DNA from: Escherichia coli
Lineage (GTDB): Bacteria > Pseudomonadota > Gammaproteobacteria > Enterobacterales > Enterobacteriaceae
DNA length: 64,000 nt
Strand: one strand, 5' to 3'
Assembly (NCBI RefSeq): GCF_001677475.2
Contig: NZ_CP015229.1
Below the pieces are notes generated by a model that searched no databases, was not told the DNA's origin, and was given only the letters and a program-made list of their open reading frames with translations. This document shows positions 22,486 to 41,269 of this stretch, piece by piece. Position 1 is the first letter of the stretch. Each line of letters starts with the position of its first letter. The position numbers were made by a program, and so were the translations under genes.

Positions 22486-23898
22486 TTATTCTATTGCCCG
22501 ATACACGGCCTCGCCAATTTGCTTCAGTGCTACGCGATAGGTTTCGCTGAGCGGCAAAGCGCAGTTGATACGCAGACAATTACGGTATTTACCGGAAGCC
22601 GAGAAAATCGAGCCTGCCGCCACCTGGATTTTCATGCGGTACAGCTGCCGCGCGACGCAGACCATATCGACCTGTTCAGGCAATTCGATCCACAGTAAAA
22701 ATCCGCCTTTCGGGCGCGTAATACAGATTTCGCAGGGAAAATATTCCCGTATCCAGCAGGTATAAAGCGCCAGATTGCGCTGATAAGTCTGCCGCATCCG
22801 CCGGATATGGCGATGATAGTGACCTTCCAGCACAAACGTTGCCGCCGCCATTTGCGTGGACGGCACATTAAAGCTGCTGATGGCGTATTTCATATGCATC
22901 AGTTTATCGTGATAACGCCCCGGTGCGACCCAACCCACGCGCAGGCCTGGAGCAATACTTTTACTGAACGAGCTGCACAACAGCACTCGCCCGTCGATAT
23001 CCCATGAATGAATGGTCCGCGGGCGCGGATACTCCGTTGCCAGTTCGCCGTAGACATCATCTTCAAAAATCACAATATCATGACGCTGAGCGAGAGAGAG
23101 AACGGCCCGTTTGCGCGCGTCCGGCATAATAAATCCCAGCGGATTATTACAGTTTGGCACCAGAATGATGCCTTTAATCGACCACTGTTCCAGCGCCAGT
23201 TCCAGCGCTTCAACGCTGATGCCTGTTTCTGGATCGGTTGGGATTTCAATCACTTTCACGCCCATGCCACGCAGCATCTGCATCGAACCGTAATAACAGG
23301 GGGATTCGACCGCGACAATATCGCCCGGTTTACACACTGCCATTAACGCCAGCGACATCGAGTTATGGCAGCCGCTGGTGATAATGATGTCATCGGCGGT
23401 GACCACCGAGCCGCTGTCGAGCATCAGGCGGGCAATCTGCTCTCGCAATACCCGCTGACCGGCTAACAAGTCATAACCGAGAACGGTTTGCAGATTATGC
23501 TGCACCACCCGGCTTAGCTCCCGCCACAGCGGTTTCAGGCTGGGCGTTTCGACATCCGGCGTGCTTTTGCTTAACGGAACAATGGAACTGTCGCTATGCG
23601 CCACCAGCATATCCAGCACCTGATCCCACTGGGTAATTTCCACCGGGCGCTGCACCGGACGCGTCATCGGCGGTACAGGCGGCTGGGCTTTACGTTGTGC
23701 GACAAAATAACCCGAACGCGGCTGCGGAGTGATGAGCTTCATCGTTTCCAGCGTCTGGTACGCCTGCTGCACGGTGCTGATGCTGACGCCGTGCTCCTGG
23801 CTTAAGCTGCGCACCGACGGCAATTTCTCCCCGTGACGATACAGCCCCTGCTCAATCCGCTCGGCAAGTAGAGTCGCCAGATGTTGATAACGCGTCAT
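22486..23898 (-). CDS. yjiR: MocR-family regulator (GntR HTH fused to aminotransferase-like domain) YjiR
   Basis: 470-aa ORF; N-terminal HTH (LPSVRSLSQEHGVSISTVQQAYQTLE) plus PLP-aminotransferase-like body. Confidence 0.85.
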   Translation of the reverse strand: MTRYQHLATLLAERIEQGLYRHGEKLPSVRSLSQEHGVSISTVQQAYQTLETMKLITPQPRSGYFVAQRKAQPPVPPMTRPVQRPVEITQWDQVLDMLVAHSDSSIVPLSKSTPDVETPSLKPLWRELSRVVQHNLQTVLGYDLLAGQRVLREQIARLMLDSGSVVTADDIIITSGCHNSMSLALMAVCKPGDIVAVESPCYYGSMQMLRGMGVKVIEIPTDPETGISVEALELALEQWSIKGIILVPNCNNPLGFIMPDARKRAVLSLAQRHDIVIFEDDVYGELATEYPRPRTIHSWDIDGRVLLCSSFSKSIAPGLRVGWVAPGRYHDKLMHMKYAISSFNVPSTQMAAATFVLEGHYHRHIRRMRQTYQRNLALYTCWIREYFPCEICITRPKGGFLLWIELPEQVDMVCVARQLYRMKIQVAAGSIFSASGKYRNCLRINCALPLSETYRVALKQIGEAVYRAIE

Positions 23899-24074
23899 GC
23901 TGTATTCCTTATTTGGACCATACAGAGAGAAAAACCGGTACAGATGAGGCTAAAAAACCGGATGCAGATGCTGTTTTAACCTGTCTGTATGTTAAATAAA
24001 ACTAATATTTGCATCTGTATTGTGAACTGCCAGAAGGCGGATGATTAAGCCTCTGAAAGATGAGGAGGCAGCAG

Positions 24075-24239
24075 ATGGAATTTCACGAAAACAAAGCTAA
24101 AGCACCGTTTATTGGACTTGTGCAACTCTGGCAGGTGATGAGGCGTTGGCGGCGGCAAATGCAGACCCGACGAGTGTTACAGCAGATGAGTGATGAGCGG
24201 TTGAGGGATATTGGGTTACGCAGGGAGGATGTGGAGTGA
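24075..24239 (+). CDS. yjiS: DUF1127 small protein YjiS
   Basis: Manual translation MEFHENKAKAPFIGLVQLWQVMRRWRRQMQTRRVLQQMSDERLRDIGLRREDVE (54 aa); GAGGAGG SD 6 nt upstream. Below the track's length cutoff. Confidence 0.75.
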   Translation: MEFHENKAKAPFIGLVQLWQVMRRWRRQMQTRRVLQQMSDERLRDIGLRREDVE

Positions 24240-24335
24240 TGGGGCTGTTCGTCGCGGATAAACAGGATTTCTATATAACCTTCACAAGGAAGTGTTTATT
24301 ATTGTGAAATCATCGCTTCACGGAAAGACGTCAGA

Positions 24336-26429
24336 ATGAAAGCAACAGAAGCCCGTTTACTCGATTTTTTAAAACGTTCGCAGCAGTTTGTTATTCCCAT
24401 TTATCAACGCACCTATTCATGGACAGAGCAACAATGTCGGCAACTTTGGGACGACATCATTCGTGCCGGAAAGCGTGACGATATATCCGCGCATTTTATC
24501 GGTTCGGTTGTTTATATAGAGCAGGGGTTGTATCAGGTTTCCGGTATTTCTCCGTTGCTGGTCATTGATGGTCAACAGCGGCTGACGACCGCAATGTTGC
24601 TGATTGAGGCTTTATCGCGCCATCTTGGCGAAGAAGAAGTTTTTGATGGCTTTTCGGCAATGAAATTGCGTAATTATTATTTACTCAATCCTTATGAGTC
24701 CGGTGAGAAAGGATTTAAATTACTGCTGACCGAGACCGATAAAGACAGTTTGCTGGTGTTAATAAAACAAAGACCAATGCCAGAAAACTATTCCCATCGA
24801 ATAATGGAAAATTTTAGTTTCTTTGATGAGCAAATTACCAAACTCGGTGATGACTTGATCCCCTTATGTCGTGGGTTAGCAAAGCTATTAATTGTCGATG
24901 TGGCGCTTAATCGTGGTCAGGATAATCCGCAACTGATTTTTGAAAGTATGAACTCCACCGGTAAGGCGTTAAGTCAGGCCGATCTGGTGCGCAATTTTAT
25001 TCTGATGGGCCTCGAACCAGAGCATCAAACACGGTTGTATGAAGATCACTGGCGTCCAATGGAAATCGCTTTTGGTCAGCAAGGTTACAGCGAATATTTT
25101 GACAGTTTTATGCGTCATTATCTGACGGTAAAAACGGGGGAGATCCCTCGGACAGATGAAGTCTATGAGGCATTTAAACTACATGCCCGCAGCCAGAGTG
25201 TTGCTGAAAAAGGCGTAGATCGGCTGGTTGAAGATATACACATCTACGCGGAGTATTACTGTGCAATGGCATTGGGTAAGGAAAGTGACAAATCGCTTGC
25301 CACGGCTTTTCAGGATTTGCGCGAGTTAAAGGTCGATGTGGCGTATCCTTTCTTACTGGCGCTTTATCATGACTATAAAAATGGCGTTTTGTCTCACGAA
25401 GATTTCCTGAGCATAATTCGTTTAATTGAATCTTATGTTTTCCGCCGTGCAGTGTGTGCAATTCCGACGAATTCTTTGAACAAGACGTTTGCCACTTTTT
25501 ATAAGATCATTAATAAAGAAAATTATCTGGAAAGCATTCAGGTGCATTTTATGAACCTGCCTTCGTATCGTCGTTTCCCCAACGATGATGAATTTAAACG
25601 GGAATTAAAAGTTCGCGATCTCTATAACTTCCGCAGTCGCAGCTACTGGTTACGACGACTAGAAAACGATAAACGCAGAGAGCGCGTGGAAGAGTTTACG
25701 ATTGAGCACATTATGCCGCAGAACGAAAACCTGTCGGCTAAATGGCGCGAAGAGCTGGGAAGCGACTGGCAGCGTATTCATAAAGAATTGTTGCATACGT
25801 TGGGGAATCTCACTTTAACGCGCTATAACTCCCGCTACAGTGACAGACCTTTCGCGGAAAAACGCGATATTGAAGACGGCTTTAAGCATAGCCCGCTCTA
25901 TTTGAATATCGGTCTTGGGCAGTGCGAAAAATGGGATGAAGCCGCCATTCGCGCCCGAGCCGATCGTCTGGCCGATCTCGCGGTTCAGGTCTGGCAAGCG
26001 CCTTCTCTTCCTGAAGAGGTATTAGCTGTTTATCGGGGTCAGCCGGAGAACAAAACCAGTTACAGCCTGAGTGATTATCCTTTCCTTGCTGATGGTTCGC
26101 ATAGCCGGGTGTTATTCGATCATCTTCGCGATGAAGTTATGCGCCTGGACGCAGGGATCACACAGGAAGTTTTAAAGCTGTATATTGCGTTTAAAGCGGA
26201 AACGAATTTTGTTGATGTTGTGCCGCAAAAAAGCCGACTGCGATTGTCGCTTAATATGCAGTTTCATGAACTGGTCGATCCGAAAGGTATTGCCAAAGAT
26301 GTGACAAATGTTGGGCGCTGGGGCAATGGTGATGTGGAAATTGGTTTCAGCGACCTCGCACAACTTCCTTACATTATGGGATTAATTCGTCAGGCATTTG
26401 AAAAACAGATGGAGAGTGCGTTGGTATAA
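24336..26429 (+). CDS. GmrSD-family (DUF262 + DUF1524/His-Me finger) putative type IV modification-dependent restriction endonuclease
   Basis: 697-aa ORF; N-terminal DUF262 signature (PIYQRTYSW...LLVIDGQQRLTT), C-terminal DUF1524-like region (FTIEHIMPQN...LGNLTLTRYN). Confidence 0.7.
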   Translation: MKATEARLLDFLKRSQQFVIPIYQRTYSWTEQQCRQLWDDIIRAGKRDDISAHFIGSVVYIEQGLYQVSGISPLLVIDGQQRLTTAMLLIEALSRHLGEEEVFDGFSAMKLRNYYLLNPYESGEKGFKLLLTETDKDSLLVLIKQRPMPENYSHRIMENFSFFDEQITKLGDDLIPLCRGLAKLLIVDVALNRGQDNPQLIFESMNSTGKALSQADLVRNFILMGLEPEHQTRLYEDHWRPMEIAFGQQGYSEYFDSFMRHYLTVKTGEIPRTDEVYEAFKLHARSQSVAEKGVDRLVEDIHIYAEYYCAMALGKESDKSLATAFQDLRELKVDVAYPFLLALYHDYKNGVLSHEDFLSIIRLIESYVFRRAVCAIPTNSLNKTFATFYKIINKENYLESIQVHFMNLPSYRRFPNDDEFKRELKVRDLYNFRSRSYWLRRLENDKRRERVEEFTIEHIMPQNENLSAKWREELGSDWQRIHKELLHTLGNLTLTRYNSRYSDRPFAEKRDIEDGFKHSPLYLNIGLGQCEKWDEAAIRARADRLADLAVQVWQAPSLPEEVLAVYRGQPENKTSYSLSDYPFLADGSHSRVLFDHLRDEVMRLDAGITQEVLKLYIAFKAETNFVDVVPQKSRLRLSLNMQFHELVDPKGIAKDVTNVGRWGNGDVEIGFSDLAQLPYIMGLIRQAFEKQMESALV

Positions 26430-26475
26430 CGTGGCGAATAATACCCGGTAGCACTGGCGCTACCGGGTCAATCTA

Positions 26476-26817
26476 TCAGGCGACTTTCTGTTTACCGGCA
26501 ATCACCCCAATAAATTCCTGCACCTGCTTTTGTTTACGTGCCGACAGCTTGCACACCTGGCGCAGTGACTGCATCAGTTCGCTCTCTTCGGGGGCGGGTG
26601 GTTGGGTGGTGAGGATAATACAGCCTTCCATCACTTTGACATCTACCGCCGTGCCAGTGGCAAAACCGGCGGCTTCCAGCCACTGACCTTTCAGGGTGAT
26701 GGCGGGAATGCGGCTGTAATCCGGGTAGCGACTCGCATAACTCACGGTTAATTGACGGTTATTTGCTGGGGAGACTTCTGCTTCGAACGGTTGTGCAATA
26801 GAATGCGTGTCAGTCAT
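26476..26817 (-). CDS. symE: SOS-induced toxin-like protein SymE
   Basis: Translation from ATG 26817, [34 protein letters not shown]... (113 aa), recognised as SymE; the track ORF extends upstream to 26874. Confidence 0.85.
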
Positions 26818-26885
26818 GATTACTATTCCTTTGAAATAGGGATTGTGATTAGCGGTGCGGGTGTGTTGGCGCACATCCGCACCGC
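26800..26885 (+). ncRNA. symR: Probable SymR antisense sRNA (approximate placement)
   Basis: Placed by homology logic only: SymR is described as antisense to the symE 5' end. A 9-bp perfect hairpin (gcggtgcgg/ccgcaccgc, about 26852-26884) lies at the expected 3' end. Ends not determined. Confidence 0.3.
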
Positions 26886-26894
26886 GCTAAATAC

Positions 26895-26910
26895 CTGTAT
26901 ATATCATCAG
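26895..26910. promoter_or_regulatory. LexA-box-like palindrome upstream of symE
   Basis: CTGTATATATCATCAG, against the CTGT-N8-ACAG consensus with one mismatch; about 80 nt upstream of the symE ATG. Confidence 0.55.
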
Positions 26911-26991
26911 TAAATATGGGGAAAGTCCAGCTAAAAATTAATGAAAATAAGATGAAAATTAGCGTACAATATAATTTTTGGTGATGTGAAT

Positions 26992-27013
26992 AAAGCGGCT
27001 ATTTAGCCGCTTT
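26992..27013. terminator. Hairpin with flanking T-runs downstream of hsdS (possible bidirectional terminator)
   Basis: aaagcggct-attt-agccgcttt perfect stem, flanked by T-rich runs on both strands. Confidence 0.55.
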
Positions 27014-27037
27014 ATTGGTTTTATGAGGGCGAGGAAA

Positions 27038-28798
27038 TTAGTTTATCGCCGCGTCAGTGAGTGCGTCTGCAAGGTGCAGTTGGGTTTGCTGGGCGGATTG
27101 GATATGATTCTTTAATTCTTCACATAGTTTATAAAAAATATGTAGTTTACTCATTATTTTTTTTGCTTCTGAGCTAGGAGGAATAGCAACAGGACAACCT
27201 CTGAGCTGGGTTTTATTAATAGAGGCTAAATTAGTGGTTTGCTTACTTGCGTTAGCAAAATATTGTCTTGAGAATGGGCTATTCATATATGTTTCTAACC
27301 AATATGGATCAACATCTTGCCCTATATTTCGTCCTTTGAATACATGGTTTTGATTTGCTATATACCAGTCATGACACCATACTGTAGTTCTCCCGACTGT
27401 ATCCCAGTCGCCGCCTTCTGTGATCAATAAATCTCCCTTGACTACTTGATATTTTTCTTTTTCCTCAATAGGGATTTCAATCTGTTTAATTTCCGTAAGA
27501 TCAAGATATCCGCGTTGGACGTTTGCCACACGTAAATAAGGAACTTTTACCAAAGTTCTATTTGATAAATTTCTTCCTTTAGTGATACCACTTTGAATAT
27601 CAATAATATCTTCAAATAAACACCACTCCCACCCTTCCGGCAGTTCAAATGGTTTTTCCTCATCGCTAATTGGCGGCAACGGTTTTTGTTTTTTTATTTT
27701 TCCTTTTTTCACCAGTTGAGCTTTTTCCTGCGCAATTCGTTTGAGCAGTTCAGAGGCAGGTTCGTCATTCGGATCCTGCGGCACAAGTTTACCCATTACG
27801 GCCAGTTGCAGAATGGTCTGTTTTAATGCATCCACGCTGGCTTCGGTGGTAAATAGTGTGTCGAAATGCTCGCTAATACGCGCCCAGTTTTCAGCCAGTT
27901 CCTCGGCGTTTTGGCTGTCTGTAAGCGTTCCCAACAGGGTTTCAACCAGTTGCTGATGTGCGTCCAGACTGGCCAAGGATTGCTGTTCCAGTTGGTCGCA
28001 AAGGGACATGAGCTCCTGTACTTTGGATACAATACGTATTTGTTCTTGGTAAGGTGGTAAAATAACAGGGATCTCTTTTAACTTAGACGCTTTTATTCCT
28101 GTTGCGGTCATGCCTGTAGATTTGTCACTTAGTTGTGACTGGAAGGGGATCGCCAGGATTTGAATAAGCATAAAAGGGCTTATCTCTGGAGTATGCCATT
28201 GAAAACAGATAGAACGTTGAGCAAGAGCGAACTTTCCGTCTAAATCAATAATCGCTGCATTCCCCAGTGGTGCTTCAGTCGTGAATAAAATATCACCACA
28301 TTTAGGAAAGCCTCTTGTCATCCATGATATGTAATCTTCTTCAGATATGAACTCTTCTGGATTGAGATCAATATAGCCCTTTCTGATATTTTTTGCTGTT
28401 ATAAGCCTTATACCATTTTCTTTTTTATGTGGTGTTTTTCCTCGGTAATCGATGAATTTAGCTAAATTACCAAGTCTTATCCATGACCACTTTTCGGGGG
28501 TATCGATATAATATTCATTTCCATGGATATTAGTGCTTGCTGTGGTTTTCATACCATTATTGCGCGCTAATTCTTTTTTCCGTTCTTCATTACGCTTCAG
28601 CAGCTCCGACGCTGGTTCATCATTCGGATCCTGCGGCACTAGTTTACCGCGCACCGCCAGTTCCAGAATCAGCTCACGCAATTTCTTAATGCCATACAAA
28701 TCAATTTTACCGGAACTGCCGCGCCCGGCGGTGGAACGGGTTTGCAACGCCGAGGTCCAGGTTGCCATATGATCAACGATCAGCTTTTCCACACTCAT
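27038..28798 (-). CDS. hsdS: Type I restriction-modification specificity subunit HsdS
   Basis: 586-aa ORF with two target-recognition domains and a duplicated conserved spacer (LVPQDPNDEPASELLKR at both about aa 45 and about aa 335); ATG overlaps the hsdM stop (ATGA). Confidence 0.85.
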   Translation of the reverse strand: MSVEKLIVDHMATWTSALQTRSTAGRGSSGKIDLYGIKKLRELILELAVRGKLVPQDPNDEPASELLKRNEERKKELARNNGMKTTASTNIHGNEYYIDTPEKWSWIRLGNLAKFIDYRGKTPHKKENGIRLITAKNIRKGYIDLNPEEFISEEDYISWMTRGFPKCGDILFTTEAPLGNAAIIDLDGKFALAQRSICFQWHTPEISPFMLIQILAIPFQSQLSDKSTGMTATGIKASKLKEIPVILPPYQEQIRIVSKVQELMSLCDQLEQQSLASLDAHQQLVETLLGTLTDSQNAEELAENWARISEHFDTLFTTEASVDALKQTILQLAVMGKLVPQDPNDEPASELLKRIAQEKAQLVKKGKIKKQKPLPPISDEEKPFELPEGWEWCLFEDIIDIQSGITKGRNLSNRTLVKVPYLRVANVQRGYLDLTEIKQIEIPIEEKEKYQVVKGDLLITEGGDWDTVGRTTVWCHDWYIANQNHVFKGRNIGQDVDPYWLETYMNSPFSRQYFANASKQTTNLASINKTQLRGCPVAIPPSSEAKKIMSKLHIFYKLCEELKNHIQSAQQTQLHLADALTDAAIN

Positions 28799-30267
28799 CA
28801 GTTAACCTCCTTGCCAGACAGCGCAGCGCCAAGAATATCGCGCAGTTGATTACGCAGCGTCTGGATCTCCGCCTGCTGTTTTGCATACTGCGCTAACAAT
28901 TCATCTGGATCATGGCTGACGGTTTCCGCCTGATGTGGGTTTTTAATATCCAGATTGAAGTTACGCGCAATCACGTCATCAATGCTGACTTTCCACGCCT
29001 GCTCATTCTCGACGCGGCTGGCAAAACCATCGGCCTCGTTACCCCACCAGTCGATCTCCGCCTGAAACTCTTCAAACTTCATCGGCTTGGTTTTGCTGTA
29101 ATTTTTCACGCCCGCCGGATACGGATGCTCATAGAACCAAATCTCTTTGGTTGGCTGACCTTTGGTAAAGAACAACAGGTTGGTTTTAATGCCGGTATAG
29201 GGGTTAAACACACCATTTGGTAAACGCACGATGGTATGCAGGTTGCACTCTTCGGTAAGTAGCTTTTTGATTTTGGTTTTAACACCTTCGCCAAATAGCG
29301 TGCCATCCGGCAATACCACCGCCGCGCGACCGTTTTTCGCCAGTACTTCCACAATCAGTTGCAGGAACAGATCCGCCGTTTCGCGGGTTTGCATCTCTGC
29401 CGGAAAGTTCTTCTCAATACCGTCTTCTTCCGTGCCACCAAACGGCGGGTTGGTAACAATGACATCCAGTTGTTCATCCCAGGAGGAAAGCGGTTTGTTC
29501 AGGGTGTTGTCGTGACGAATTTGTACCGGTACTTCAATGCCGTGCAGCAGCATATTGGTGGTCGCCAGCAGGTGCGGAAGCTGTTTTTTCTCAACACCGT
29601 GGATCTGTTGTTGCAGCGTCTGATGATCGGCGACGCTCTTCACGTATTTGTTCTTTACATGATCGAACGCGCAGGCAAGAAAACCGCCCGTACCGCAGGC
29701 CGGGTCCATAATGGATTCGCCGAGTTTCGGATCAACGCGATCCACCATAAAGCGAGTGACGGCGCGTGGAGTATAGAATTCGCCCGCATTGCCCGCAGAT
29801 TGCAGATCTTTAAGGATCTGTTCGTAAATATCACCAAACAGATGGCGTTCGCTGGCGCTGGTAAAGTCAATTTCGTTCAGCTTGTTGATCACCTGACGCA
29901 GTAGCGTACCGTTTTTCATATAGTTATAGGCATCGCTGAACGCCTGCTTCACCACGTAGCCGCGTGGGTTTTTATCGATAGGCGCAGTGAGGTTTTTCAA
30001 CGCCGGGAACAGATCATCATTAACGAATTCCAGCAGGGAATCACCGGTAATGCCCTGAGCGTTTGCGGCCCAACTGCGCCATAAATAACGCTGTGGGATC
30101 GGATATTGATAGTTATCCTGCTCCAGTTCCAGCGCCTCTTCCTGGGCATCGAAGATTTTCAAAAACAGCAGCCAGGAGAGCTGACCGAGACGCTGCGCAT
30201 CGCCGTCCACACCGGCATCTTTGCGCATAATATCTTGTAATGATTTGATTACTGAACTGATAGACAT
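28798..30267 (-). CDS. hsdM: Type I restriction-modification N6-adenine methyltransferase HsdM
   Basis: N6-Mtase motifs (DPACGTGGFL; NPPFGG); start placed at ATG 30267 (MSISSVIK...), since the more upstream ATGs lie in or next to the hairpin that follows hsdR. Confidence 0.85.
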   Translation of the reverse strand: MSISSVIKSLQDIMRKDAGVDGDAQRLGQLSWLLFLKIFDAQEEALELEQDNYQYPIPQRYLWRSWAANAQGITGDSLLEFVNDDLFPALKNLTAPIDKNPRGYVVKQAFSDAYNYMKNGTLLRQVINKLNEIDFTSASERHLFGDIYEQILKDLQSAGNAGEFYTPRAVTRFMVDRVDPKLGESIMDPACGTGGFLACAFDHVKNKYVKSVADHQTLQQQIHGVEKKQLPHLLATTNMLLHGIEVPVQIRHDNTLNKPLSSWDEQLDVIVTNPPFGGTEEDGIEKNFPAEMQTRETADLFLQLIVEVLAKNGRAAVVLPDGTLFGEGVKTKIKKLLTEECNLHTIVRLPNGVFNPYTGIKTNLLFFTKGQPTKEIWFYEHPYPAGVKNYSKTKPMKFEEFQAEIDWWGNEADGFASRVENEQAWKVSIDDVIARNFNLDIKNPHQAETVSHDPDELLAQYAKQQAEIQTLRNQLRDILGAALSGKEVN

Positions 30268-30289
30268 GTTGTATTCCATGAAAAACAAG

Positions 30290-30320
30290 GCCTTCTGCAA
30301 CATGATGGTTGCAGAAGGCG
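30290..30320 (-). terminator. Hairpin plus T-run between hsdR and hsdM (terminator/attenuator candidate)
   Basis: gccttctgcaac-atgatg-gttgcagaaggc perfect 12-bp stem; on the minus strand it is followed by TTGTTTTTC immediately before the hsdM start. Confidence 0.5.
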
Positions 30321-30333
30321 CAAAAGAGAGTTG

Positions 30334-32766
30334 TTAAGCAGAGCGGGGCGGTAATTGGTAGATTTCGTTTTCCAGCTCGCTGAGCGCCTGATTATACCCG
30401 TTACGGTCGCCAAATCCGGTTTTAATAATCTCCGGTAAGGTGCCCATGCTGTCGAATGGTTTAAGTTTCAGCACCTGAATACTTTCGATCTCCTGTACGC
30501 CCGCATCGGCGTATTTATCCAGCAGATTATCGAGCACGGCTTGCGCTGCTTCAGAGTATTTTGTGAAGTAGTTCCGCTTGCGCACGTTCTCGGCGCGCTC
30601 TTTGCGGGTTAACGGCGGCTGACCATACACTACGTGGCAAAGCATGTCGAACGGGTCGAGATCTTTACCGACTTCTTCTGCCAGCACTTCCCAGATGATC
30701 CCCTGTTGCTCCAGCTCGTGAATGATCGCTTCTTTGCGATCGGCGTCCTGCCACTTGCGGGTAAAGTCATCCAGCGAGGCATATTCTTTGAGCAGTGTTT
30801 TACGGGTGTAATCTTTAAAGGATTCGGTAACCAGTTTTCCGTCGGCATCGTAATACTGAACGCGCTGTGCAATAACGCCCACCGCCACGCCATTGACGTG
30901 AAACTTGCGGATTTTCTTCTCGTCTTCTTCCGGAAGTGGGCCAACATCATCGGTATCGGTAACCTGGTATGGCGGCGCAGGCGGTTCATCAACGCCTGTC
31001 ACCTGCTCTTCGTCATGTTCGCTGATTTCTTCGAGTTTCTCTTCAAAATCAGATTCTGGATCGGCGATATCCTCTGGTGTGGTATCCATGACTTTTTCGG
31101 GAATGCCATCGAAACGCTCATCGGCAAACAGTTCGGTGGCTTTTTTAAAGTCGAGGATGGTAAACCAGAGTTTGCCGTAACGTTCGTCGATGCGTGTACC
31201 ACGACCGATAATCTGCTTGAATTTGGTCATCGACTGGATGTTCTGATCCAGTACTACCAGTTTGCAGGTTTTAGCATCCACACCGGTGGTCATCAGCTCT
31301 GAAGTGGTCGCGATAACCGGGTACGGTTTTTTCGGGTTGATGAAGTTATCCAACTGAGCTTTGCCAATTTCATCATCACCGGTAATTTTCATGACGTATT
31401 TGTCGTTCTTTTTCACCTGCTCCGGGTTGAGATTAACCAGGGCGCGGCGCATACGTTCTGCATGATCGATGTCGTTACAGAAGACGATGGTTTTATCCAT
31501 CGGGTTGGTGCGCTTGAGGTAGTCGGTAATGGTTCTGGCAACCAGTTCTGTGCGTTCGTCGATTACCATTGTGCGATCGAAATCTTTCTGGTTATAGATA
31601 CGATCGTCGATCACTTCGCCGTTTAAGTCAGTTTGCCCTTTGGTTGGGCGCCAGCCTTGCAGATCAACATCAATATCAACACGGACAACTTTATAAGGGG
31701 CGAGGAAGCCGTCTTCGATCCCTTCTTTTAGCGAGTAGACGTAAACCGGATCGCCGAAGTAATCCGTGCTGGAGACTTCATGGGTCTCTTTTGGCGTGGC
31801 GGTTAAGCCAATTTGGGTGGCGGAGCTGAAATAATCAAGGATCTCTCGCCAGGCGCTGTCTTCGGATGCGCTGCCGCGATGGCATTCGTCGATCACGATC
31901 AGATCGAAGAAATCTGGTGCGACTTGTTTAAACGCTTTTTGGTCTTCCTCCGGGCCAGTTATAGCCTGATAGAGTGCGAGGTGTATTTCATAAGCGGGAT
32001 CAATGGTGCGCCCGCTGACTTTGGTCATTGCCGTACCAAATGGCTGGAAATCATTATTTTTGGTTTGGTCGACCAGAATGTTGCGATCGGCAAGGAACAG
32101 AATGCGTTTTTTATTTTTTGATTTCCACAGGCGCCAGATGATCTGGAATGCGGTATAGGTTTTCCCTGTTCCGGTCGCCATTACCAGCAGAACACGGTTT
32201 TGCCCGTTGGAGACGGCTTCTATGGTTTTGTTGATTGCCTGAAGCTGGTAATAACGTGGCGATTTACCGCTGCCATCGTCGTAATAGTCCTGAGTAATCA
32301 CCGGAAGCTGAGCTTGTGTGTATCCTTTCCAGAGGCAGAATTTTTGCCAGAGTTCAGCGGGGGAGGGGAAGTCATCCAGCGTTATTTGCTTTTCAAGGCA
32401 TTCACCTTCGGCTGCGGTAGCATCGCGGAAGATAAAGCCATCACCGTTGGTGGCAAAAACAAAAGGAACGTCCAGCAGGCGCGCGTATTCAATGCCCTGT
32501 TGCATCCCTTTGCCAATTTCATGTTTGTTGGCTTTTGCTTCAATCACGGCTAAGGGAATGCCTGGTTTGTGATACAGCACGATGTCAGCAGATTTTACCG
32601 TTCTGCGTGCCGCAACTTTACCACGTACGATGACTTTACCGTCCCGGAGTTTGACCTCCTGTCTGATTTGCGTTGTGTTGTCCCAGCCTGCATTGAGAAT
32701 GGCTGGCATAACGCATTTGGTAATGATGTCTGCTTCCGTCAGGTTACTTAGGTTCAGTTCCGCCAT
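30334..32766 (-). CDS. hsdR: Type I restriction enzyme endonuclease/helicase subunit HsdR, short form (type IB/EcoAI-like)
   Basis: 810-aa ORF; PD-(D/E)XK N-terminus, SF2 helicase motifs (MATGTGKT; DECHR). The 810-aa length is well below the roughly 1170 aa I recall for EcoKI HsdR and matches what I recall for type IB. Confidence 0.85.
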
Positions 32767-32906
32767 GGGGTGTTCTCATCTAAATGCGATGCGCAAATTC
32801 TACACAGAAAAATAGATGAATTCATCTGTTCAAAGAGTATTATCAGCGTTAAGTCACTGTTTTAAAGGTATTCTTGAGTTTCATCAATAGTAGGATAAGG
32901 ATTCAT

Positions 32907-33875
32907 ATGGAGAATGTTCGGTTCTTGCAAGGAGTGAAACAATATTTTTGTACTAAGGCATTAGATGTCATTCTGCTAATTTATCTACTCCTTGGTTTTA
33001 TACTTCTCCCTTATAAATATCTGTGGAAAGATATTATTTTATCTCTGTGCTTTGTTGGTATTCTTCTTTATGCATTAGTGGAAGAAAATCGCATTACAGA
33101 ATATATGGGGTATTTTGTCAAGTTCAGTAATAAAAACAGTTTGAATAGTTGTGCTGCCTGGTGTTCACTTATTGCATGGTTTATATTTTTGTTTTTTGTG
33201 CTTTCAATTAATATTTTTCCAGTCAGTGTCTCTGTATACGTTTTTAGTGCTTTTTCAGTATTTGTTTTTCTGGGAGGTGTTTTTATTATATTAGAGTTGG
33301 AATTTAAAAATAATAAAAAATTAATGATTATTAGGTCTATGACTTTAGCTGTCATACCAATTATATATTTATTCTCAAGTAGTTTTTCTTCCAGTTTATT
33401 TTTAAGTTTGAGTAATCTAAATATCACACTATCACCATGGGTTGAGTATTTCTGGAAAGGGATGGCTTTTTTGTTTCTTTTCTTCATGTTAATGCAACTT
33501 ATTATCTATTTTACTTTTTTAACTCTGTGGGCTAAATTAAGTGTGTACAGGTTGTTTATACTTGCCGGAGCATTTATAGCATCTACTATTTTAGTGGTTT
33601 TTGCTTCAAAAAACGTAGAGAGTATTTCGTACTACGTTTTAAAAAGTACTATAGATTTTGAATGGCGCAGTCAGGTTAAATGTGGACAGTTGAATATTTC
33701 ACATCCGGATGAAAGGTATTTCGGGTTTAATACCGATAAATATACTGTATTTTATTCCAATAGAGAGGGTAAATGGGGGTTCAATGAGTTGAAATGTAAG
33801 AAAGGTTCTGACAGGAGAGATGCATATTCCATTGAGAATGTCTCAGAATATAACGTGCCAGGATGGCTGAAATAA
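32907..33875 (+). CDS. Uncharacterized AT-rich polytopic membrane protein (about 6-7 TM) with about 85-aa soluble C-terminal domain; sits where K-12 has mrr
   Basis: Track ORF 32874..33875 starts at TTG; preferred start ATG 32907 with AAGGA SD 5 nt upstream. Strongly hydrophobic N-terminal 240 aa, hydrophilic C-terminus; visibly AT-rich; no recognisable catalytic motif. Confidence 0.6.
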   Translation: MENVRFLQGVKQYFCTKALDVILLIYLLLGFILLPYKYLWKDIILSLCFVGILLYALVEENRITEYMGYFVKFSNKNSLNSCAAWCSLIAWFIFLFFVLSINIFPVSVSVYVFSAFSVFVFLGGVFIILELEFKNNKKLMIIRSMTLAVIPIIYLFSSSFSSSLFLSLSNLNITLSPWVEYFWKGMAFLFLFFMLMQLIIYFTFLTLWAKLSVYRLFILAGAFIASTILVVFASKNVESISYYVLKSTIDFEWRSQVKCGQLNISHPDERYFGFNTDKYTVFYSNREGKWGFNELKCKKGSDRRDAYSIENVSEYNVPGWLK

Positions 33876-33914
33876 GTTATCTTTATAATTAAATCGTAAA
33901 GGTTCTGGACATAA

Positions 33915-34106
33915 ATGAGCATGGTTAAACATAAACGGGGCACACTCTACACACTTGATGTGCAGCAAGAAGCTGAACTCAAGGCTTTGGTTAATAAATC
34001 CGACGATTATATTGATTACAGCGATATTCCTGCGTCTGGTAGCGATGCATGGGCTGACGCCAAACGCAGCAATTTTTTGCCAAATCCAGGTATTCACGCG
34101 CAATAA
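33915..34106 (+). CDS. Small BrnA/DUF4415-like protein (possibly truncated antitoxin-like remnant)
   Basis: 63-aa ORF 40 nt after the membrane-protein stop; motif IDYSDIPASGSDAWADAKR resembles the DUF4415/BrnA signature; no ribbon-helix-helix tail and no BrnT-like partner seen. Confidence 0.4.
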   Translation: MSMVKHKRGTLYTLDVQQEAELKALVNKSDDYIDYSDIPASGSDAWADAKRSNFLPNPGIHAQ

Positions 34107-34185
34107 AACTTAGCGGAGGGGAGCTCGTCGTTCTGCTTCCCCCTCACTGCTAAATGGGGCATTGAACTGCTTTACACTCAACCTT

Positions 34186-35148
34186 TCACGCAGACTTCCT
34201 CAACCCCGCAAACGCCGCCCGAATCTCATCCTCCGGCAGCTGAATCCCGATAAACACCATCGTGCTATGCGGTTTTTCATCGCCCCACGGGCGGTCCCAG
34301 TCGGCGCTGTAGAGGCGCTGGACGCCCTGGAACAGCAGGCGGTTAGGTTCGCCGTCAATCCATAGCATCCCTTTGTAACGCAGCAGTTTATCCGCCGACT
34401 CCAGCAGCAGGTTTTCCATCACCCGGGAAACTTCGCTGATATCTACCGGGTAATCCAGTTCCACCACAATCGACGAAATATCGTTTTGTTTATCCGCGAT
34501 AAAGTGAAAACGTGGCTTGGTGCTGACGACGTTCTCTTCCAGCATAAAACCGTTGGTGTTGAACAGCAGGCCCAGGTCGATGTCGCCGTGGGTGACGGTG
34601 TAGACCGGTGCGCGGGCGTTGATGCGCGCCAGGCGTTCACGCAGTTTCTCTGCTTCGCCTGCGACGTCGGTTTTAGTCAGCAGAATACGGTCGGCGTAGC
34701 CAACCTGGGACTGGGCGATGGTGAACTGGTTCATCTGCTCATCGGCATGTACCGCATCCACCAGCGCAATCACGCCGTCCAGCAGGTAGCGCTGGCATAA
34801 AATCTCATGGGAGAAAAAGGTCTGAATAATCGGGCCGGGATCGGCCATGCCGGTGCATTCAATGACCAGACGGTCGAACTGAATATTGCCCTTGTCGAGA
34901 TTATCCAGCAGGTCGAGTAGCGCGTCTTCCAGCTCGTTGGAGCGCGAACAGCAGATGCAGCCGTTGGTCAGCGTTTTGATCTGCGTGGCGCGGTCGCCAA
35001 TCAGTTGATCATCAACGGAGACTTCGCCGAATTCGTTTTCAATCACGGCAATCTTGTAGCCGTGTTGTTCGTTAAGAATATGGCGCAACAGGGTGGTTTT
35101 GCCCGCGCCTAAAAAACCGGTGAGTAGGGTAACTGCAATCGGGTTCAT
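34186..35148 (-). CDS. yjiA: CobW/P47K-family GTPase YjiA
   Basis: Translation from ATG 35148, MNPIAVTLLTGFLGAGKTTLLRHILNEQHGYKIAVIENEFGE... (P-loop GTPase). Confidence 0.9.
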   Translation of the reverse strand: MNPIAVTLLTGFLGAGKTTLLRHILNEQHGYKIAVIENEFGEVSVDDQLIGDRATQIKTLTNGCICCSRSNELEDALLDLLDNLDKGNIQFDRLVIECTGMADPGPIIQTFFSHEILCQRYLLDGVIALVDAVHADEQMNQFTIAQSQVGYADRILLTKTDVAGEAEKLRERLARINARAPVYTVTHGDIDLGLLFNTNGFMLEENVVSTKPRFHFIADKQNDISSIVVELDYPVDISEVSRVMENLLLESADKLLRYKGMLWIDGEPNRLLFQGVQRLYSADWDRPWGDEKPHSTMVFIGIQLPEDEIRAAFAGLRKSA

Positions 35149-35158
35149 GCTCTCTCCA

Positions 35159-35362
35159 TTAACAACAGCGCATACCGCCTTTACCATCGCCGCCGTAGCG
35201 CGCGTTCTGGCGTTCGCGGAAGAATTCTTCATAGCTCATGTACGGCTTGTCGGGATGGTTGGTCTTCATATGCTCGACGTAGTTGTCGTAGTCTGGAATG
35301 CCAATCAACATCTTCGCCGCCTGGCCGAGATATTTTTTTGCCTGTCCTAAGTTACCAAACAT
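35159..35362 (-). CDS. yjiX: DUF466 small protein YjiX (BtsT-associated)
   Basis: 67-aa product [67 protein letters not shown]; the track ORF is longer only because it reads through the upstream REP. Confidence 0.85.
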
Positions 35363-35410
35363 TTTGCCTTCCAGATATGCGTAAAGCCCGGAAGGTCCGG
35401 GCTGGGGATT

Positions 35411-35488
35411 TGCCGGATGCGGCGTACACGCCTTATCCGGCCTACGATAGACACTTTGTAGGCCGGATACGCGCAGCGCATCCGGCAA
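35411..35488. repeat. REP element pair between btsT and yjiX
   Basis: gccggatgcggcgtacacgccttatccggcctac ... gtaggccggatacgcgcagcgcatccggca. Confidence 0.75.
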
Positions 35489-35492
35489 CCGG

Positions 35493-37643
35493 TTAGTGGT
35501 GCGAAGAGATCTTCACGCCGCCTTCCGGGATTGGAACGTACGGCGTTTCTTTGTCAGTACGTTTGTCGCTGTTACGCACCTTCAGCCAGGTTTTGAAACC
35601 GTAGAAGATGATGCTGTACACCACAATCAGGAACAGAATACTCAGGCCTGCGTTGGTGTAGTTGTTCACAACGATGTGGTTCATGTTGGCAATCTGCTGC
35701 GCCGTCAGGTCAGTACCGTTAGCAATCTTCTCTTTGTACTGGCTTGCCATGTAGAAGAAGCCTTCCATCTGCGGGTTGGTGCTGAACAGTTTCAGACCCA
35801 GCGCCCAGGTGGTGCAGATAAGCAGCCATACCGCCGGAACAACAGTTACCCAGATGTATTGGGTGCGCTTCATCTTAATCAGCACAACGGTGCCCAGAAC
35901 CAGCGCTACGGCTGCCAGCATCTGGTTGGAGATACCGAACAGCGGCCACAGGCTCTTAACGCCGCCCAGCGGATCGACCACGCCCTGATACAGCAGGTAG
36001 CCCCACAGACCCACACAGCCCGCTGTACCGATGATACCGGCAACCAGAGAGTCGGTTTTTTTCAGGAACGGGATGAAGTTACCCAGCAGGTCTTGCAGCA
36101 TAAAGCGGCCAGAACGGGTACCGGCATCCAGCGCGGTCAGGATGAACAGGGCTTCGAACAGGATACCGAAGTGATACCAGAAGCCCATGTCAGCCATCGG
36201 CAGCACTTTGTGGAATACATGAGCGATACCTACCGCCAGCGTCGGCGCACCACCTGCACGGTTCAGGACAGAAGGCTCACCAATGTCTTTCGCGGTTTGC
36301 AGGATCTGCTCTGGCGAAATCACGAAGCCCCAGGAGCTGACAGTCGCCGCCGCGTGTGCGGTAACGTCTTTCAGCTGCGCCATGATGATTGGCGCGTTCT
36401 CGCCACCCATTTCATGCAGGTTAGGCATGGTGATGCCGAGGCCAGCAGGCGGGGTGTTCATCGCGAAGTAAAGACCCGGTTCGATGATGGACGCAGCAAC
36501 CAGCGCCATAATCGCCACGAAGGACTCCATCAGCATTGCGCCGTAGCCGATGAAACGCGCATCGGTTTCGTTAGCCAGCAGTTTCGGCGTCGTACCGGAA
36601 GAGATCAGCGCGTGGAAGCCAGATACCGCACCACAGGCGATGGTGATGAACAGGAACGGGAACAGAGCGCCTTTCCACAGCGGGCCAGTACCATCAATGT
36701 ACTGAGTCATCGCAGGCATTTTCAGTTCCGGGTTCAGCACCACGATACCCAGCGCCAGGCCGACGATAACGCCGATTTTCAGGAAGGTTGCCAGATAGTC
36801 GCGCGGTGCGAGGATCAGCCACACCGGCAGCAGTGCGGAAACAAACGCATAGCCAATCAGCGCGAAGGTAATGGTGGTGTCTTTAAAGGTCAGTGCCGGA
36901 CCCCAGTACGGATCGTGAGCAATCACGCCACCGAAGTAGATAGAGGCAACCAGCAGCACGATACCAATGACAGAGACTTCACCTACACGCCCCGGACGAA
37001 TAAAGCGCATGTAGATACCCATAAACAGCGCAATCGGTACGGTTGAGCAAACGGTGAAGACACCCCACGGACTTTCGGCCAGGGCTTTAACCACAATCAG
37101 CGCCAGGACGGCAAGGATGATGATCATGATTAAGAAACAGCCAAACAGCGCGATAGTCCCCGGTACTGGTCCCATCTCTTCTTTGATCATCTCACCGAGA
37201 GATGCGCCGTTACGGCGAGAGGAGATAAACAGCACCATAAAGTCCTGTACCGCACCGGCCAGCACTACCCCCGCCAGCAGCCACAGCGTGCCAGGCAGGT
37301 AGCCCATCTGCGCGGCGAGCACCGGACCAACCAGCGGACCGGCACCGGCGATAGCGGCGAAGTGGTGACCAAACAACACGTAACGGTTGGTCGGAACGTA
37401 GTTCAGACCGTCGTTGTTAATAACCGCAGGCGTCGCGCGCGTGGGGTCGAGTTTCATCACCTTCTGGGCGATGTACAGACTGTAGTAGCGATACGCCACC
37501 AGATACACCGACACAGAGGCGACCACGATCCACAGGGCGCTGACGTGCTCCCCCCGACGTAATGCAACTACCGCGAGGCAGAATGCACCGATGATTCCGA
37601 GAATCACCCAGGGTATGTGCTTGAATAGTTTTTTCGTATCCAT
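35493..37643 (-). CDS. btsT: Pyruvate/H+ symporter BtsT (CstA family)
   Basis: Translation from ATG 37643, [43 protein letters not shown]...; large CstA-type polytopic transporter. Confidence 0.9.
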
Positions 37644-37922
37644 AGTAAAACCTGGCATTTTACTCGTCGTCTTTTGGCTTACAGGTGCGACAGCTGCATT
37701 TGTTCACCTCTGTCACTTACTGTTGTAAGCTCCCGGGGATTCACTCACTTGCTGCCTTCCTGCAAACCAAAATCCATTGAGTAATTTGTTAATCATAGGC
37801 CGAAGCCGTTCTAGGTTTGCGTTGCGTTTGAGGAGGTAAATTGACCGCTATCCTGCAGTGATGTTGCCAGAGTTACGCGCGCGTAAAGTAAGGTAAATAA
37901 CTGAGTGGTTATTTTAGGGACG

Positions 37923-38035: not shown

Positions 38036-38548
38036 TTAAATCGCAGCTTCCATTTCCAGCATCACCGGATGGAAACGGCGTTTAAAGTAGATAAGTCCGT
38101 GACCTTCTGCACTGAGGATGATGTTTTTAATCTCCACCAGATACACCAGATGTGTGCCAATTGCCTGCACATCGCGGATCTCACCTTCAAGACTGGCCAG
38201 CGAACCTTTCAGCACCGGCTGCGCCAGCGGACCTTTTTGCCAGCATGAGAGGCTAAAACGCTCTTCCATCGCCATGCCTGTCATGCCCGCGAAGTGGCGT
38301 GCCATCAGTTCCTGCTCATGGTTGAGGACGTTGACGCACAACTTGCCGTTGCCCTGAAAAACCGGGTTCATCGCACTGTTGGCGTTAATGCACACCATCA
38401 GCGACGGTGGTGTATCCGTGACCGAGCAGACAGCCGTTGCCGTAATCCCGCATTGTCCGGCGTCGCCCTCGGTGGTGATAATATTTACCGCTGCCGACAG
38501 GCTGGCCATCGCGTCACGAAAGCGCAGGCGTTGTTCATCTAATTGCAT
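38036..38548 (-). CDS. hpaC: 4-hydroxyphenylacetate 3-monooxygenase, flavin reductase component
   Basis: 170-aa product MQLDEQRLRFRDAMASLSAAVNIITTEG... from ATG 38548 with GGAGG SD. Confidence 0.9.
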   Translation of the reverse strand: MQLDEQRLRFRDAMASLSAAVNIITTEGDAGQCGITATAVCSVTDTPPSLMVCINANSAMNPVFQGNGKLCVNVLNHEQELMARHFAGMTGMAMEERFSLSCWQKGPLAQPVLKGSLASLEGEIRDVQAIGTHLVYLVEIKNIILSAEGHGLIYFKRRFHPVMLEMEAAI

Positions 38549-38565
38549 CTTAACCTCCTGCTGCA

Positions 38566-40128: not shown

Positions 40129-40378
40129 GTCGACCTCTACAGTATTAATCGGAATACGATTGTTAATTTTGTGTGTTGTTTTTGTTATTCAATTGAAGCT
40201 TGCAGAGGCGATTACGGGAAGACACTTTTGGGACAATGGCTGGTACTTTTCAGGTCGGGTACGGTTTTGTGATCGAGGTCGCTTTTAGCAATTTTTGACG
40301 TTACTAAATCCCCTTGCTCCAGGCGGAGAAAGGGGAATAGCAGGTGGTGCCTGGTTTCCCGTTAAGGCTAAGGGATTT

Positions 40379-41269
40379 TCACGTCACAGGTACTTTTTTG
40401 GCACGATAAGCACTGGGCGAGCAACCGACTAAGCGATTAAAAAAGCGGGCAAAATAAGCCGGATCTTTAAAACCGAGTTGCCAGGCAATATTGTTCACGG
40501 CGTTATCAGAAAACAGCAGCAGCCGCTTGGCTTCTCGCAGCTGCCTGTCGAAAATCAACCGTTTTGGCGGACGGTTGGCAAAGCGGCGGCAGATGTCGGT
40601 GAGGCGTGATTCGGTGATATGCAGTTCGTTAGCGTAATCCGGTACTGTCCAGTGCTGATGAAAATGGCTTTCAATCAGCATATTAAAACGCTGGAACAGT
40701 TTTAATTCTCCGCGCATTCCGCTGGCGGCATGGTCGTCGAGTTTTGCGTTACGCAGCAGTAGGGTGAACACTGCCTGTGCCAGTAACGTCAGGGTGTGTT
40801 CCCGTCCAGGCAGTTGTTCCACCGATTCCCGCTCTATCAGTTGCCAATAGTGTTCCAGCGCCGCCAGTTCGTCGGGTTTATCTGCCAGTGACAGGCAAAT
40901 CCCCGGGAGGCCGAAGGTTTCCCGAGTGCCCGGATAAAGAACTTCCAGCAGGGGCCAGATCAGATCTTCCCGTACCGTCAATACATGACCGTCGGCGTCA
41001 GACTCCGTAATAAACGCATGAGGTACTGACGGCGGCGTCAGGACAAACAGGGGCGCTTCCACCGAGTAACGATGATCGTCAAGCTGTAGCTCAATCTGTC
41101 CGCTATTGAGGAAATGCATCTGAAAGTACTGTTCGTGGCGATGTGGCAGCATATGGCGGCCAAAAAATGCCGCCATGCGGGCGAACGACTGATAATGCAC
41201 ATCGTCCGTGCCCAGGCTTTCATCGTACTCTTTGCTGATATCAATATTGGCAATCTGAGGGTCACACAT
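40379..41269 (-). CDS. hpaA: AraC-family activator of hpaBC
   Basis: 296-aa ORF, C-terminal AraC HTH; position between hpaX and hpaB. Confidence 0.85.
   Translation of the reverse strand: MCDPQIANIDISKEYDESLGTDDVHYQSFARMAAFFGRHMLPHRHEQYFQMHFLNSGQIELQLDDHRYSVEAPLFVLTPPSVPHAFITESDADGHVLTVREDLIWPLLEVLYPGTRETFGLPGICLSLADKPDELAALEHYWQLIERESVEQLPGREHTLTLLAQAVFTLLLRNAKLDDHAASGMRGELKLFQRFNMLIESHFHQHWTVPDYANELHITESRLTDICRRFANRPPKRLIFDRQLREAKRLLLFSDNAVNNIAWQLGFKDPAYFARFFNRLVGCSPSAYRAKKVPVT

Follow-up and report, generated by a model that had tools for sequence, protein, structure and literature searches.

Gene content of the immigration control region

The DNA analysed here is a 64-kb stretch from Escherichia coli (referred to as the window), in which a variable segment at 24245-34193 is bounded by the conserved genes yjiR/yjiS and yjiA. 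The segment carries a GmrSD-type gene, the symE/symR pair, the three hsd genes of a type I system, a gene for a membrane protein and a small ORF (Table 1). All of the genes that a sequence-only reading had named were found in place; the 63-aa ORF was missing from its list. The framework genes, yjiR/yjiS (22486-24239) and yjiA, are 96.6-97.3% identical to K-12, with YjiA reaching 99% identity at the amino acid level. Restriction and defence genes stand at one site between yjiS, on the yjiR side, and yjiA, and they differ among strains: GmrSD, type IB hsdSMR and symE/symR here versus mcrBC, type IA hsd and mrr in K-12. Based on these flanks and on the breakpoints relative to K-12, we identify the interval with high confidence as the E. 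coli immigration control region (ICR; E. coli hotspot 36), as had been proposed from the sequence, holding one common alternative gene set.

Table 1. Genes and other features of the yjiR-yjiA interval, in window coordinates
Feature	Position	Strand	Evidence
yjiR, MocR-like PLP-dependent regulator, left framework gene	22486..23898	-	470-aa ORF; annotated yjiR in matching E. coli genomes
yjiS (DUF1127), final conserved gene before the variable segment	24075..24239	+	Coordinates transferred from E. coli AH65 (L001)
Single-chain GmrSD-family type IV restriction enzyme with C-terminal DUF5655, 697 aa	24336..26429	+	Pfam
symE, 113 aa	26476..26817	-	NCBIfam SymE, 227 bits (cut-off 132)
symR antisense RNA, overlaps symE 5' end	26812..26888	+	Rfam RF01809, 93.4 bits (gathering score 61), full length 1-77
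LexA-box-like site upstream of symE, TACTGATGATATATACAGGT, CTG-N10-CAG core	26893..26912	-	Read from sequence
12-bp-stem hairpin between hsdS 3' end and symE promoter	26989..27016	.	Terminator scan, listed on + strand only
hsdS, type IB specificity subunit, 586 aa, hybrid allele	27038..28798	-	PADLOC Specificity_I PDLC03179, 805 bits, full length
hsdM, type IB N6-adenine methyltransferase, 489 aa	28798..30267	-	PADLOC MTase_I, 807 bits from residue 13
hsdR, type IB (EcoAI/FtnUII family) restriction/translocase, 810 aa	30334..32766	-	NCBIfam NF046051, 1194 bits (cut-off 550)
Polytopic inner-membrane protein, 322 aa, in the K-12 mrr slot	32907..33875	+	ORF in a 32-35% G+C segment
63-aa ORF	33915..34106	+	Translation; exact protein ANO92268.1 named 'antitoxin' in GenBank
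yjiA, CobW-family GTPase, right framework gene	34186..35148	-	NCBIfam PRK11537, 683 bits

Comparison with the K-12 region

The region was aligned by blastn with MG1655 positions 4,570,000-4,595,000 and proved not to be collinear with K-12. Homology stops at 24244 and starts again at 34194. The blocks outside these borders cover yjiR/yjiS (22325-24244, 96.6%), yjiA/yjiX (34194-35362, 97.3%) and btsT (35490-37658, 98.0%), while the sole stretch shared with K-12 between them is a 459-bp islet containing symE/symR (26480-26938, 93.9%). The remaining blastn matches, of approximately 100 bp at 70%, fall within hsdM and hsdR only, and K-12 HsdM and HsdR align by tblastn at no more than 28% and 27% amino acid identity, respectively. 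On the left, K-12 yjiT-yjiV-mcrCB is replaced by the single GmrSD-type gene; on the right, K-12 type IA hsdSMR and mrr are replaced by type IB hsdSMR, the 322-aa membrane protein and the 63-aa ORF. Both search methods agree with the earlier view that every module but symE looked swapped.

K-12 McrB, McrC, Mrr and YjiT had nothing significant by tblastn across the whole window (best E-values of 0.09 for McrB and 0.54 for Mrr, and no match for McrC), and no match to McrBC or Mrr was found among the PADLOC and NCBIfam models. The sequence-only reading had likewise seen no McrB, McrC or Mrr. The K-12 content that it listed (mcrBC, symE, type IA hsd and mrr) left out yjiT and yjiV of the left cassette.

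A complete type IB restriction-modification system

HsdR covers positions 1-768 of the 768 in NF046051, which places it in the EcoAI/FtnUII family, and it scores 1708 bits against PADLOC REase_I and 531 bits against PDB 3h1t. The nuclease triad D61/E76/K78, GTGKT at 199 and the DECH helicase motif at 293 are all intact, and its length, which had been described as short, is normal for type IB. HsdM was counted from M13 of a 501-codon ORF, the start used in public annotations; in ORF numbering, its motifs are DPACGTG at 200 and NPPF at 285. The hsdM stop overlaps the hsdS start, and a terminator-like hairpin was found by the terminator scan at 30290-30319, upstream of the 489-aa hsdM start. In HsdS, the repeat LAV.GKLVPQDPNDEPASELLKR occurs at the N-terminus and again at the centre. 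With HsdR, HsdM (AdoMet and NPPF motifs) and HsdS (two target recognition domains, TRDs, and repeats) all present and intact, the type I system, judged from its sequence, is a complete type IB system of the EcoAI family. The HsdM2S complex would methylate a bipartite target, and HsdR would translocate and cut DNA that does not carry HsdM2S methylation.

HsdS is a hybrid allele, with a TRD2 that is 100% identical to that of the O157:H7 and AH65 alleles and a TRD1 that is approximately 29% identical. Since TRD1 is this divergent, one half-site of the recognition sequence should not be the same as in those alleles. No complete E. coli genome covers at least 80% of the hsdS gene; an identical HsdS protein (P0121) is present on 36 public contigs.

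The GmrSD-type gene

Pfam domains of the 697-aa protein are GmrSD_N (residues 9-222), GmrSD_C (415-547) and DUF5655 (591-690), the first two in keeping with the GmrSD-like DUF262/DUF1524 gene described from the sequence. GmrSD_N (DUF262, a ParB-like NTPase; E 1.5e-34) contains DGQQR at 78-82, and GmrSD_C (DUF1524, a His-Me/HNH nuclease; E 1.5e-26) contains EHIMP at 457-461, which fits (D/E/H)HxxP. The best PADLOC model was 'Orf5', and the HEC-06 models matched residues 8-555 with 227 bits only. In the comparison with PDB, the best match was 9jfl (E 4e-13), SspE followed with an E-value of 3e-6, and BrxU was not detected.

DUF5655, a third domain, adds to the earlier description of this protein. 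It has a predicted YdhG/YjbR/MotA-CTD-like fold and probably binds DNA. The GmrSD subfamily with DUF5655 is highly conserved, keeping 70% identity between distant phyla, and a length of 697 aa is common within the 3852-member cluster to which the protein belongs. The enzyme would be expected to cleave incoming DNA with modified bases. A distinct modified-DNA specificity of this subfamily, conferred by DUF5655, is conceivable but doubtful.

For BrxU, NTP-stimulated, modification-dependent DNA cleavage has reportedly been shown. Eco94GmrSD cleaves DNA in an NTP-stimulated and modification-dependent manner (for example, hmC and glucosyl-hmC; PMC4437046), and the GmrSD-like HEC-06 defends against phage, for which the DGQQR and EH motifs are required (bioRxiv 10.1101/2024.01.29.577857).

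The symE/symR islet

SymE is 93.8% identical in amino acid sequence to K-12 SymE, and the cis-antisense symR lies across the symE start at 26817. The symE product is presumably an SOS-induced toxin-like or nucleoid-associated protein. The LexA-box-like site has three mismatches to the 20-mer LexA consensus, and the window shows no excess of matches at this stringency (22 found versus 14.9 expected); its LexA role is one we presume from established knowledge of K-12 symE. The hairpin at 26989-27016 is predicted to be terminator-like on the + strand, that is, downstream of symR.

The pair is the sole part of the ICR core common to this locus and K-12. Kept across ICR variants, symE/symR could serve as an internal homology anchor, in which case the flanking cassettes would be exchangeable independently by homologous recombination. 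We infer this role from the pattern of homology.

The membrane protein and small ORF in the mrr slot

The 322-aa membrane protein is the sole uncharacterised part of the region. Searches of Pfam, NCBIfam, PADLOC and PHROG gave no match, nor did fold comparison yield anything informative; the AlphaFold model of the protein (pLDDT 85) is a helical bundle with a C-terminal beta domain. Its family is a small one from Enterobacterales, with only 29 cluster representatives among 1.84 billion, and has invariant residues that include C259 and C297. Members turn up repeatedly next to hsdR genes of type IB, as well as in islands that are mobile or carry defence genes. A BrnA-type antitoxin identity of the 63-aa ORF found no support: it had no Pfam match even at E <= 10 and no NCBIfam or PADLOC match, no toxin-like ORF adjoins it, and the GenBank label is unsupported.

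Alone or together with the 63-aa ORF, the membrane protein could act as a fourth defence module (membrane-acting abortive infection or superinfection exclusion, for instance) that functionally replaces Mrr, the slot of which it occupies. A 40%-identical homologue (L005) is also divergent from a type IB hsdR, which is itself 91% identical; a homologue adjoins the integrase of a P4-like satellite beside lptG (hotspot 37) with toxin-antitoxin, TIR and OLD-like cargo; and further homologues were found adjoining dndBCDE and within an ICE. The low G+C of the gene (0.32-0.35), the invariant residues of the family and the confident AlphaFold model also speak for this proposal. Against it, the database searches returned no match and the fold searches nothing informative, only approximately five genomic contexts are informative and one of these consists of ordinary metabolic genes, and neighbourhood association is weak evidence. 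According to a review, the ICR carries non-defence cargo too (PMC12707154). We consider a fourth defence module of this kind unlikely. An equally tentative suggestion is that the protein, perhaps together with the 63-aa ORF, forms a new type of membrane-acting module for phage defence or exclusion, one that accompanies type IB hsdR as well as further defence islands.

Distribution of the cassettes and origin of the segment

Frequencies were determined in 5426 complete E. coli genomes. The whole layout is present in 710 of them, and the segment occupies the yjiS-yjiA site in approximately 13%, at 92-97% identity. The GmrSD cassette (1359 genomes) is commoner than K-12 mcrBC (582), type IB hsdR (945) is as common as K-12 mrr (944), and the membrane module is found in 409. 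These differences in frequency among the GmrSD, type IB hsdR and membrane cassettes fit independent exchange. The identical locus was found in public E. coli assemblies, with 100% identity to a public assembly across 18.8 kb. Although the region does differ from K-12, and in that sense is 'remodelled' as had been noted, it is not unusual, given that the GmrSD cassette outnumbers mcrBC.

In 9,040 Enterobacteriaceae genomes, the ICR contents included type IB in 11%, GmrSD in 12%, McrBC in 6% and Mrr in 22% (PMC12707154), and GmrSD homologues can stand in the ICR instead of McrBC (PMC4437046). PMC2481252, citing Sibley & Raleigh 2004, describes the ICR as a replaceable cassette between yjiS and yjiA, with type IB in O157:H7 and CFT073. 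The ICR here is a chromosomal defence island showing ordinary, already documented strain-to-strain variation; the arrangement is not new, and cassette-like swaps at this site, including those of type IB hsd and GmrSD homologues, have been published.

As an alternative to an allelic cassette exchanged through homologous recombination, the segment might be a mobile element of recent arrival, such as a prophage, integrative element or transposon. Its G+C content is under that of the flanks (0.41-0.47 over the GmrSD gene and hsdS, and lower still over the membrane gene). A gene for a recombination-promoting nuclease of the Rpn family is found close by (21287-22243), and homologues of the membrane protein are carried elsewhere by a P4-like satellite and an ICE. 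However, no integrase, transposase or tRNA gene was found between yjiS and yjiA, and the segment sits at the exact K-12 ICR position with the conserved symE/symR islet inside it. Its frequency and identity across the complete genomes argue for old alleles rather than a recent insertion, and allelic, cassette-like replacement is what PMC2481252 describes at the ICR. A recent insertion is therefore very improbable.

Least probable of all, and largely refuted, is that the locus is a non-functional, decayed remnant with a split GmrSD pseudogene and a truncated HsdR: RefSeq does list a split pseudogene in many strains (in AH65 and MCJCHV-1, the PGAP annotation of the homologous gene consists of a 387-aa CDS and a partial DUF262 pseudogene), this position is taken by two separate CDSs in O157:H7, and HsdR had been called short, but the GmrSD-type ORF here runs for 697 codons uninterrupted, as in another public annotation (L004) and in many proteins of its cluster, HsdR spans the entire EcoAI-family model with all motifs kept, and no nonsense or frameshift mutation was found in any of the four enzymes. 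The split in AH65 is an annotation artefact, since the AH65 sequence translates without a stop or frameshift.

With allelic cassette exchange as the preferred reading, the locus is one more case of a documented process, and the practical gain is mainly its correct annotation, with little beyond. The restriction barriers of the strain would be a type IB system with hybrid specificity and a GmrSD-type enzyme, without McrBC or Mrr, a set that bears on transformation efficiency, cloning-host choice and phage susceptibility.

Comparison with known systems

The GmrSD-type protein resembles Eco94GmrSD, BrxU, SspE and HEC-06 in combining DUF262 with DGQQR and DUF1524 with (D/E/H)HxxP in one polypeptide; unlike them, it has the extra C-terminal DUF5655, and its similarity to solved DUF262 proteins is low. 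EcoAI is the type IB prototype, and the HsdR of the locus passes the EcoAI/FtnUII equivalog model, with the triad, DECH and the HsdS repeat present. The specificity subunit differs from that of EcoAI, and the class was assigned here by sequence; the classical criteria for type IB are subunit complementation, antibody cross-reaction with EcoAI and a 9-bp spacing of methylated adenines in the target (PMC2481252; PMC12707154 Table 1).

The K-12 ICR (yjiT, yjiV, mcrCB, symE/symR, EcoKI type IA hsdSMR and mrr) has the flanking genes and the symE/symR islet in common with this locus, and the logic of its layout is the same: a type IV enzyme, symE, a type I system and then one further gene. The enzyme genes themselves are non-homologous or distant. 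The ICR variants of O157:H7, CFT073 and A0 34/86 (EcoAO83I) occupy the same yjiS-yjiA site. In these variants the order GmrSD, symE, hsdS, hsdM, hsdR is as here and the hsdR DNA is 98.4-98.7% identical to that of the locus; the right-hand slot of O157:H7 holds a second DUF262/HNH pair, in contrast to the membrane protein and 63-aa ORF found here.

Organization of the locus and comparison with K-12

The immigration control region (ICR), the chromosomal defence island between yjiS and yjiA, was mapped using an ORF listing, protein family scans and an Rfam scan of the window. In MG1655, the K-12 reference, the gene order is yjiR, yjiS, yjiT, yjiV (a pseudogene), mcrC, mcrB, symE/symR, hsdS, hsdM, hsdR, mrr and yjiA, with the hsd genes encoding the type IA system EcoKI. 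Homology between the window and K-12 by blastn was confined to four blocks: 22325-24244 (96.6% identity), 26480-26938 covering symE/symR (93.9%), 34194-35362 (97.3%) and 35490-37658 (98.0%), with the variable segment occupying 24245-34193. When the K-12 McrB, McrC, Mrr and YjiT proteins were searched against the whole 64-kb window using tblastn, no significant match was obtained, and the HsdM and HsdR alignments to K-12 showed only 28% and 27% identity, respectively. The sequence-only reading had described a region lacking McrB, McrC and Mrr in which every module except symE was swapped, and the blastn and tblastn results together show that this was correct. The observation is therefore confirmed, and its interpretation is supported with minor corrections.

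Features of the ICR and neighboring parts of the window
Feature	Coordinates	Strand	Support or remark
Inverse-autotransporter adhesin gene, 1746 aa	5796-11036	-	Between kptA and yjiJ
Pentapeptide-repeat protein gene, 657 aa	13602-15575	-	Between yjiK and yjiL
Rpn-family nuclease gene, 318 aa	21287-22243	+	Immediately left of yjiR
yjiR	22486-23898	-	ORF listing/family scans
yjiS	24075-24239	+	
GmrSD-type gene, 697 aa	24336-26429	+	ORF listing/family scans
symE	26476-26817	-	Family scans, curated threshold passed
symR, antisense RNA of symE	26812-26888	+	Rfam, curated threshold passed
hsdS	27038-28798	-	
hsdM	28798-30267	-	
Terminator-like hairpin	30290-30319		After hsdR
hsdR	30334-32766	-	
Membrane-protein gene, 322 aa	32907-33875	+	
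63-aa ORF	33915-34106	+	
yjiA	34186-35148	-	Followed by yjiX and btsT
naRNA4-like match	35385-35442		Rfam, 44.6 bits (gathering score 59.5)
hpa operon	~38036-49200		Between btsT and tsr

The G+C content is approximately 0.53 in the flanks, 0.41-0.47 in the GmrSD-type gene and hsdS, and 0.32-0.35 in the membrane-protein gene. A mobile-element origin of the variable segment was considered and rejected, since the ORF listing and family scans revealed no integrase, transposase or tRNA gene within it. A pattern match to the consensus places a LexA-box-like site upstream of symE. GenBank entries for the window's proteins include ANO92262.1, ANO92267.1 and ANO92268.1.

Several other loci in the window were noted. 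The Rpn-family recombination-promoting nuclease (YhgA-like) falls within the wider ICR as defined in a 2025 review (yjiN-yjiA; PMC12707154). The adhesin is intimin/IatC-like and scored 1135 bits against the NCBIfam IatC N-terminal model, under the cut-off of 2400, while the pentapeptide-repeat protein has weak similarity to the type III effectors PipB2/PipB. The comparison genome AH65 has no gene at the adhesin position, and its annotation contains no pentapeptide-repeat gene between yjiK and yjiL. The hpa (4-hydroxyphenylacetate) catabolic operon is present in AH65 and other strains and missing from K-12 at this site. Between yjiX and btsT, Rfam gave a sub-threshold match to naRNA4, a nucleoid-associated RNA derived from REP sequences; this match is probably just a REP element.

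The type IB hsd system

HsdR had been described as short at 810 aa. However, it matched the NCBIfam EcoAI/FtnUII equivalog over the whole model (1194 bits, cut-off 550), carries the nuclease residues D61/E76/K78 and the GTGKT and DECH motifs, and matched 3h1t, a solved fragment of the Vibrio vulnificus HsdR, with 531 bits; 810 aa is thus the normal type IB length, with no truncation. HsdM contains the DPACGTG and NPPF motifs. Translation of HsdM probably begins at M13 of the ORF, for a product of 489 aa, because public annotations use M13, profile matches begin at residue 13 and the terminator-like hairpin follows hsdR.

HsdS has two copies of the type IB repeat LAV.GKLVPQDPNDEPASELLKR, one N-terminal and one central. 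Compared with the O157:H7 and AH65 alleles, TRD2 (approximately residues 376-560) shows 100% identity and TRD1 (approximately residues 96-275) approximately 29%. The closest relatives of TRD1 are one protein from a metagenome (95%) and one from Erwinia aphidicola (81%). HsdS is a mosaic allele. At a coverage of at least 80%, the window hsdS was absent from all complete RefSeq E. coli genomes; an identical protein is encoded on 36 public contigs.

The GmrSD-DUF5655 gene

RefSeq/PGAP breaks this 697-codon gene into a partial DUF262 pseudogene and a 387-aa CDS (AH65, L001 4936-7029; a homologous locus, L015 1386-3587), and the split recurs in all RefSeq records sampled. A gene truly split in two was rejected: alignment of AH65 with the window and translation gave 697 codons and zero stops in both, and in AH65, the one genome examined for this, the DNA is free of stops and frameshifts. 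The split is therefore an annotation artefact.

The protein has relatives with at least 70% full-length identity in Kiritimatiella, Psychrobacter, Halomonas, Oceanimonas and others (P0003-P0120). Such unusual conservation in distant genera implies either that the gene has spread widely, and probably recently, by horizontal transfer or that it is strongly constrained. GmrSD homologues with additional C-terminal domains were described in 2015, when type I systems were found to be their commonest neighbors (PMC4619093). The GmrSD-like HEC-06 provides anti-phage protection that depends on its DGQQR and EH motifs (bioRxiv 10.1101/2024.01.29.577857).

The membrane protein and the 63-aa ORF

Homologues of the membrane protein were found in several contexts. 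One, 40% identical, is again divergent from a type IB hsdR, whose product is 91% identical to that of the window. Others adjoin the integrase in a P4-like satellite that sits next to lptG (with toxin-antitoxin, TIR and OLD-like cargo), adjoin dndBCDE, or lie inside an integrative conjugative element; in one case the homologue is at a contig end beside ordinary uhp-like genes. These contexts suggest that the membrane protein is accessory or defence-island cargo, and they establish no function for it.

The 63-aa ORF was considered as a BrnA-type antitoxin on the basis of a D-x-x-D-I-P motif and its GenBank name 'antitoxin'. Like the membrane protein, the ORF returned no match in family profile searches, so the GenBank name is unverified and the BrnA-type assignment was dropped as unproven.

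Distribution and relation to known ICR alleles

Frequencies were determined in 5426 complete E. coli genomes at a query coverage of at least 80%. A 13.6-kb query spanning the ICR and flanking genes (22400-36000) was found in 710 (13%), the GmrSD cassette in 1359 (25%), the type IB hsdR in 945 (17%) and the membrane gene with the 63-aa module in 409 (7.5%). The K-12 mcrBC and mrr were present in 582 (11%) and 944 (17%), respectively. The layout seen in the window recurs in strain MCJCHV-1, and the public assembly GCA_031341795.3 matches the window at 100% identity over 18.8 kb. In E. coli PS2Canimalfeces3 (L018 8288-9209), an IS1 copy replaces the whole ICR core from yjiS to yjiA, with only the 3' ~125 bp of the 63-aa ORF remaining; this remnant identifies the locus as an IS1-mediated deletion derived from the window-type arrangement.

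PMC2481252, citing Sibley & Raleigh 2004, presents the ICR as an exchangeable cassette that has yjiS and yjiA at its two ends and carries type IB systems in O157:H7, CFT073 and A0 34/86, and the text on Fig. 8 of PMC4437046 describes GmrSD homologues beside type I systems in ICRs where McrBC is absent. Among 9,040 Enterobacteriaceae genomes, the 2025 review reports type IB systems at this locus (hotspot 36) in 11%, GmrSD in 12%, McrBC in 6% and Mrr in 22%, and names symE/symR, brnAT and rpn as the toxin-antitoxin systems resident there (PMC12707154). Given this published cassette variation, our finding correctly describes an allele that is common and already known, in an island whose hypervariability is likewise known. 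What novelty is left concerns the membrane-protein family and the substrate of the DUF5655-bearing GmrSD subfamily. O157:H7 shares the left cassette and the type IB system with the window, whereas its right-hand slot is occupied by a DUF262/HNH pair.
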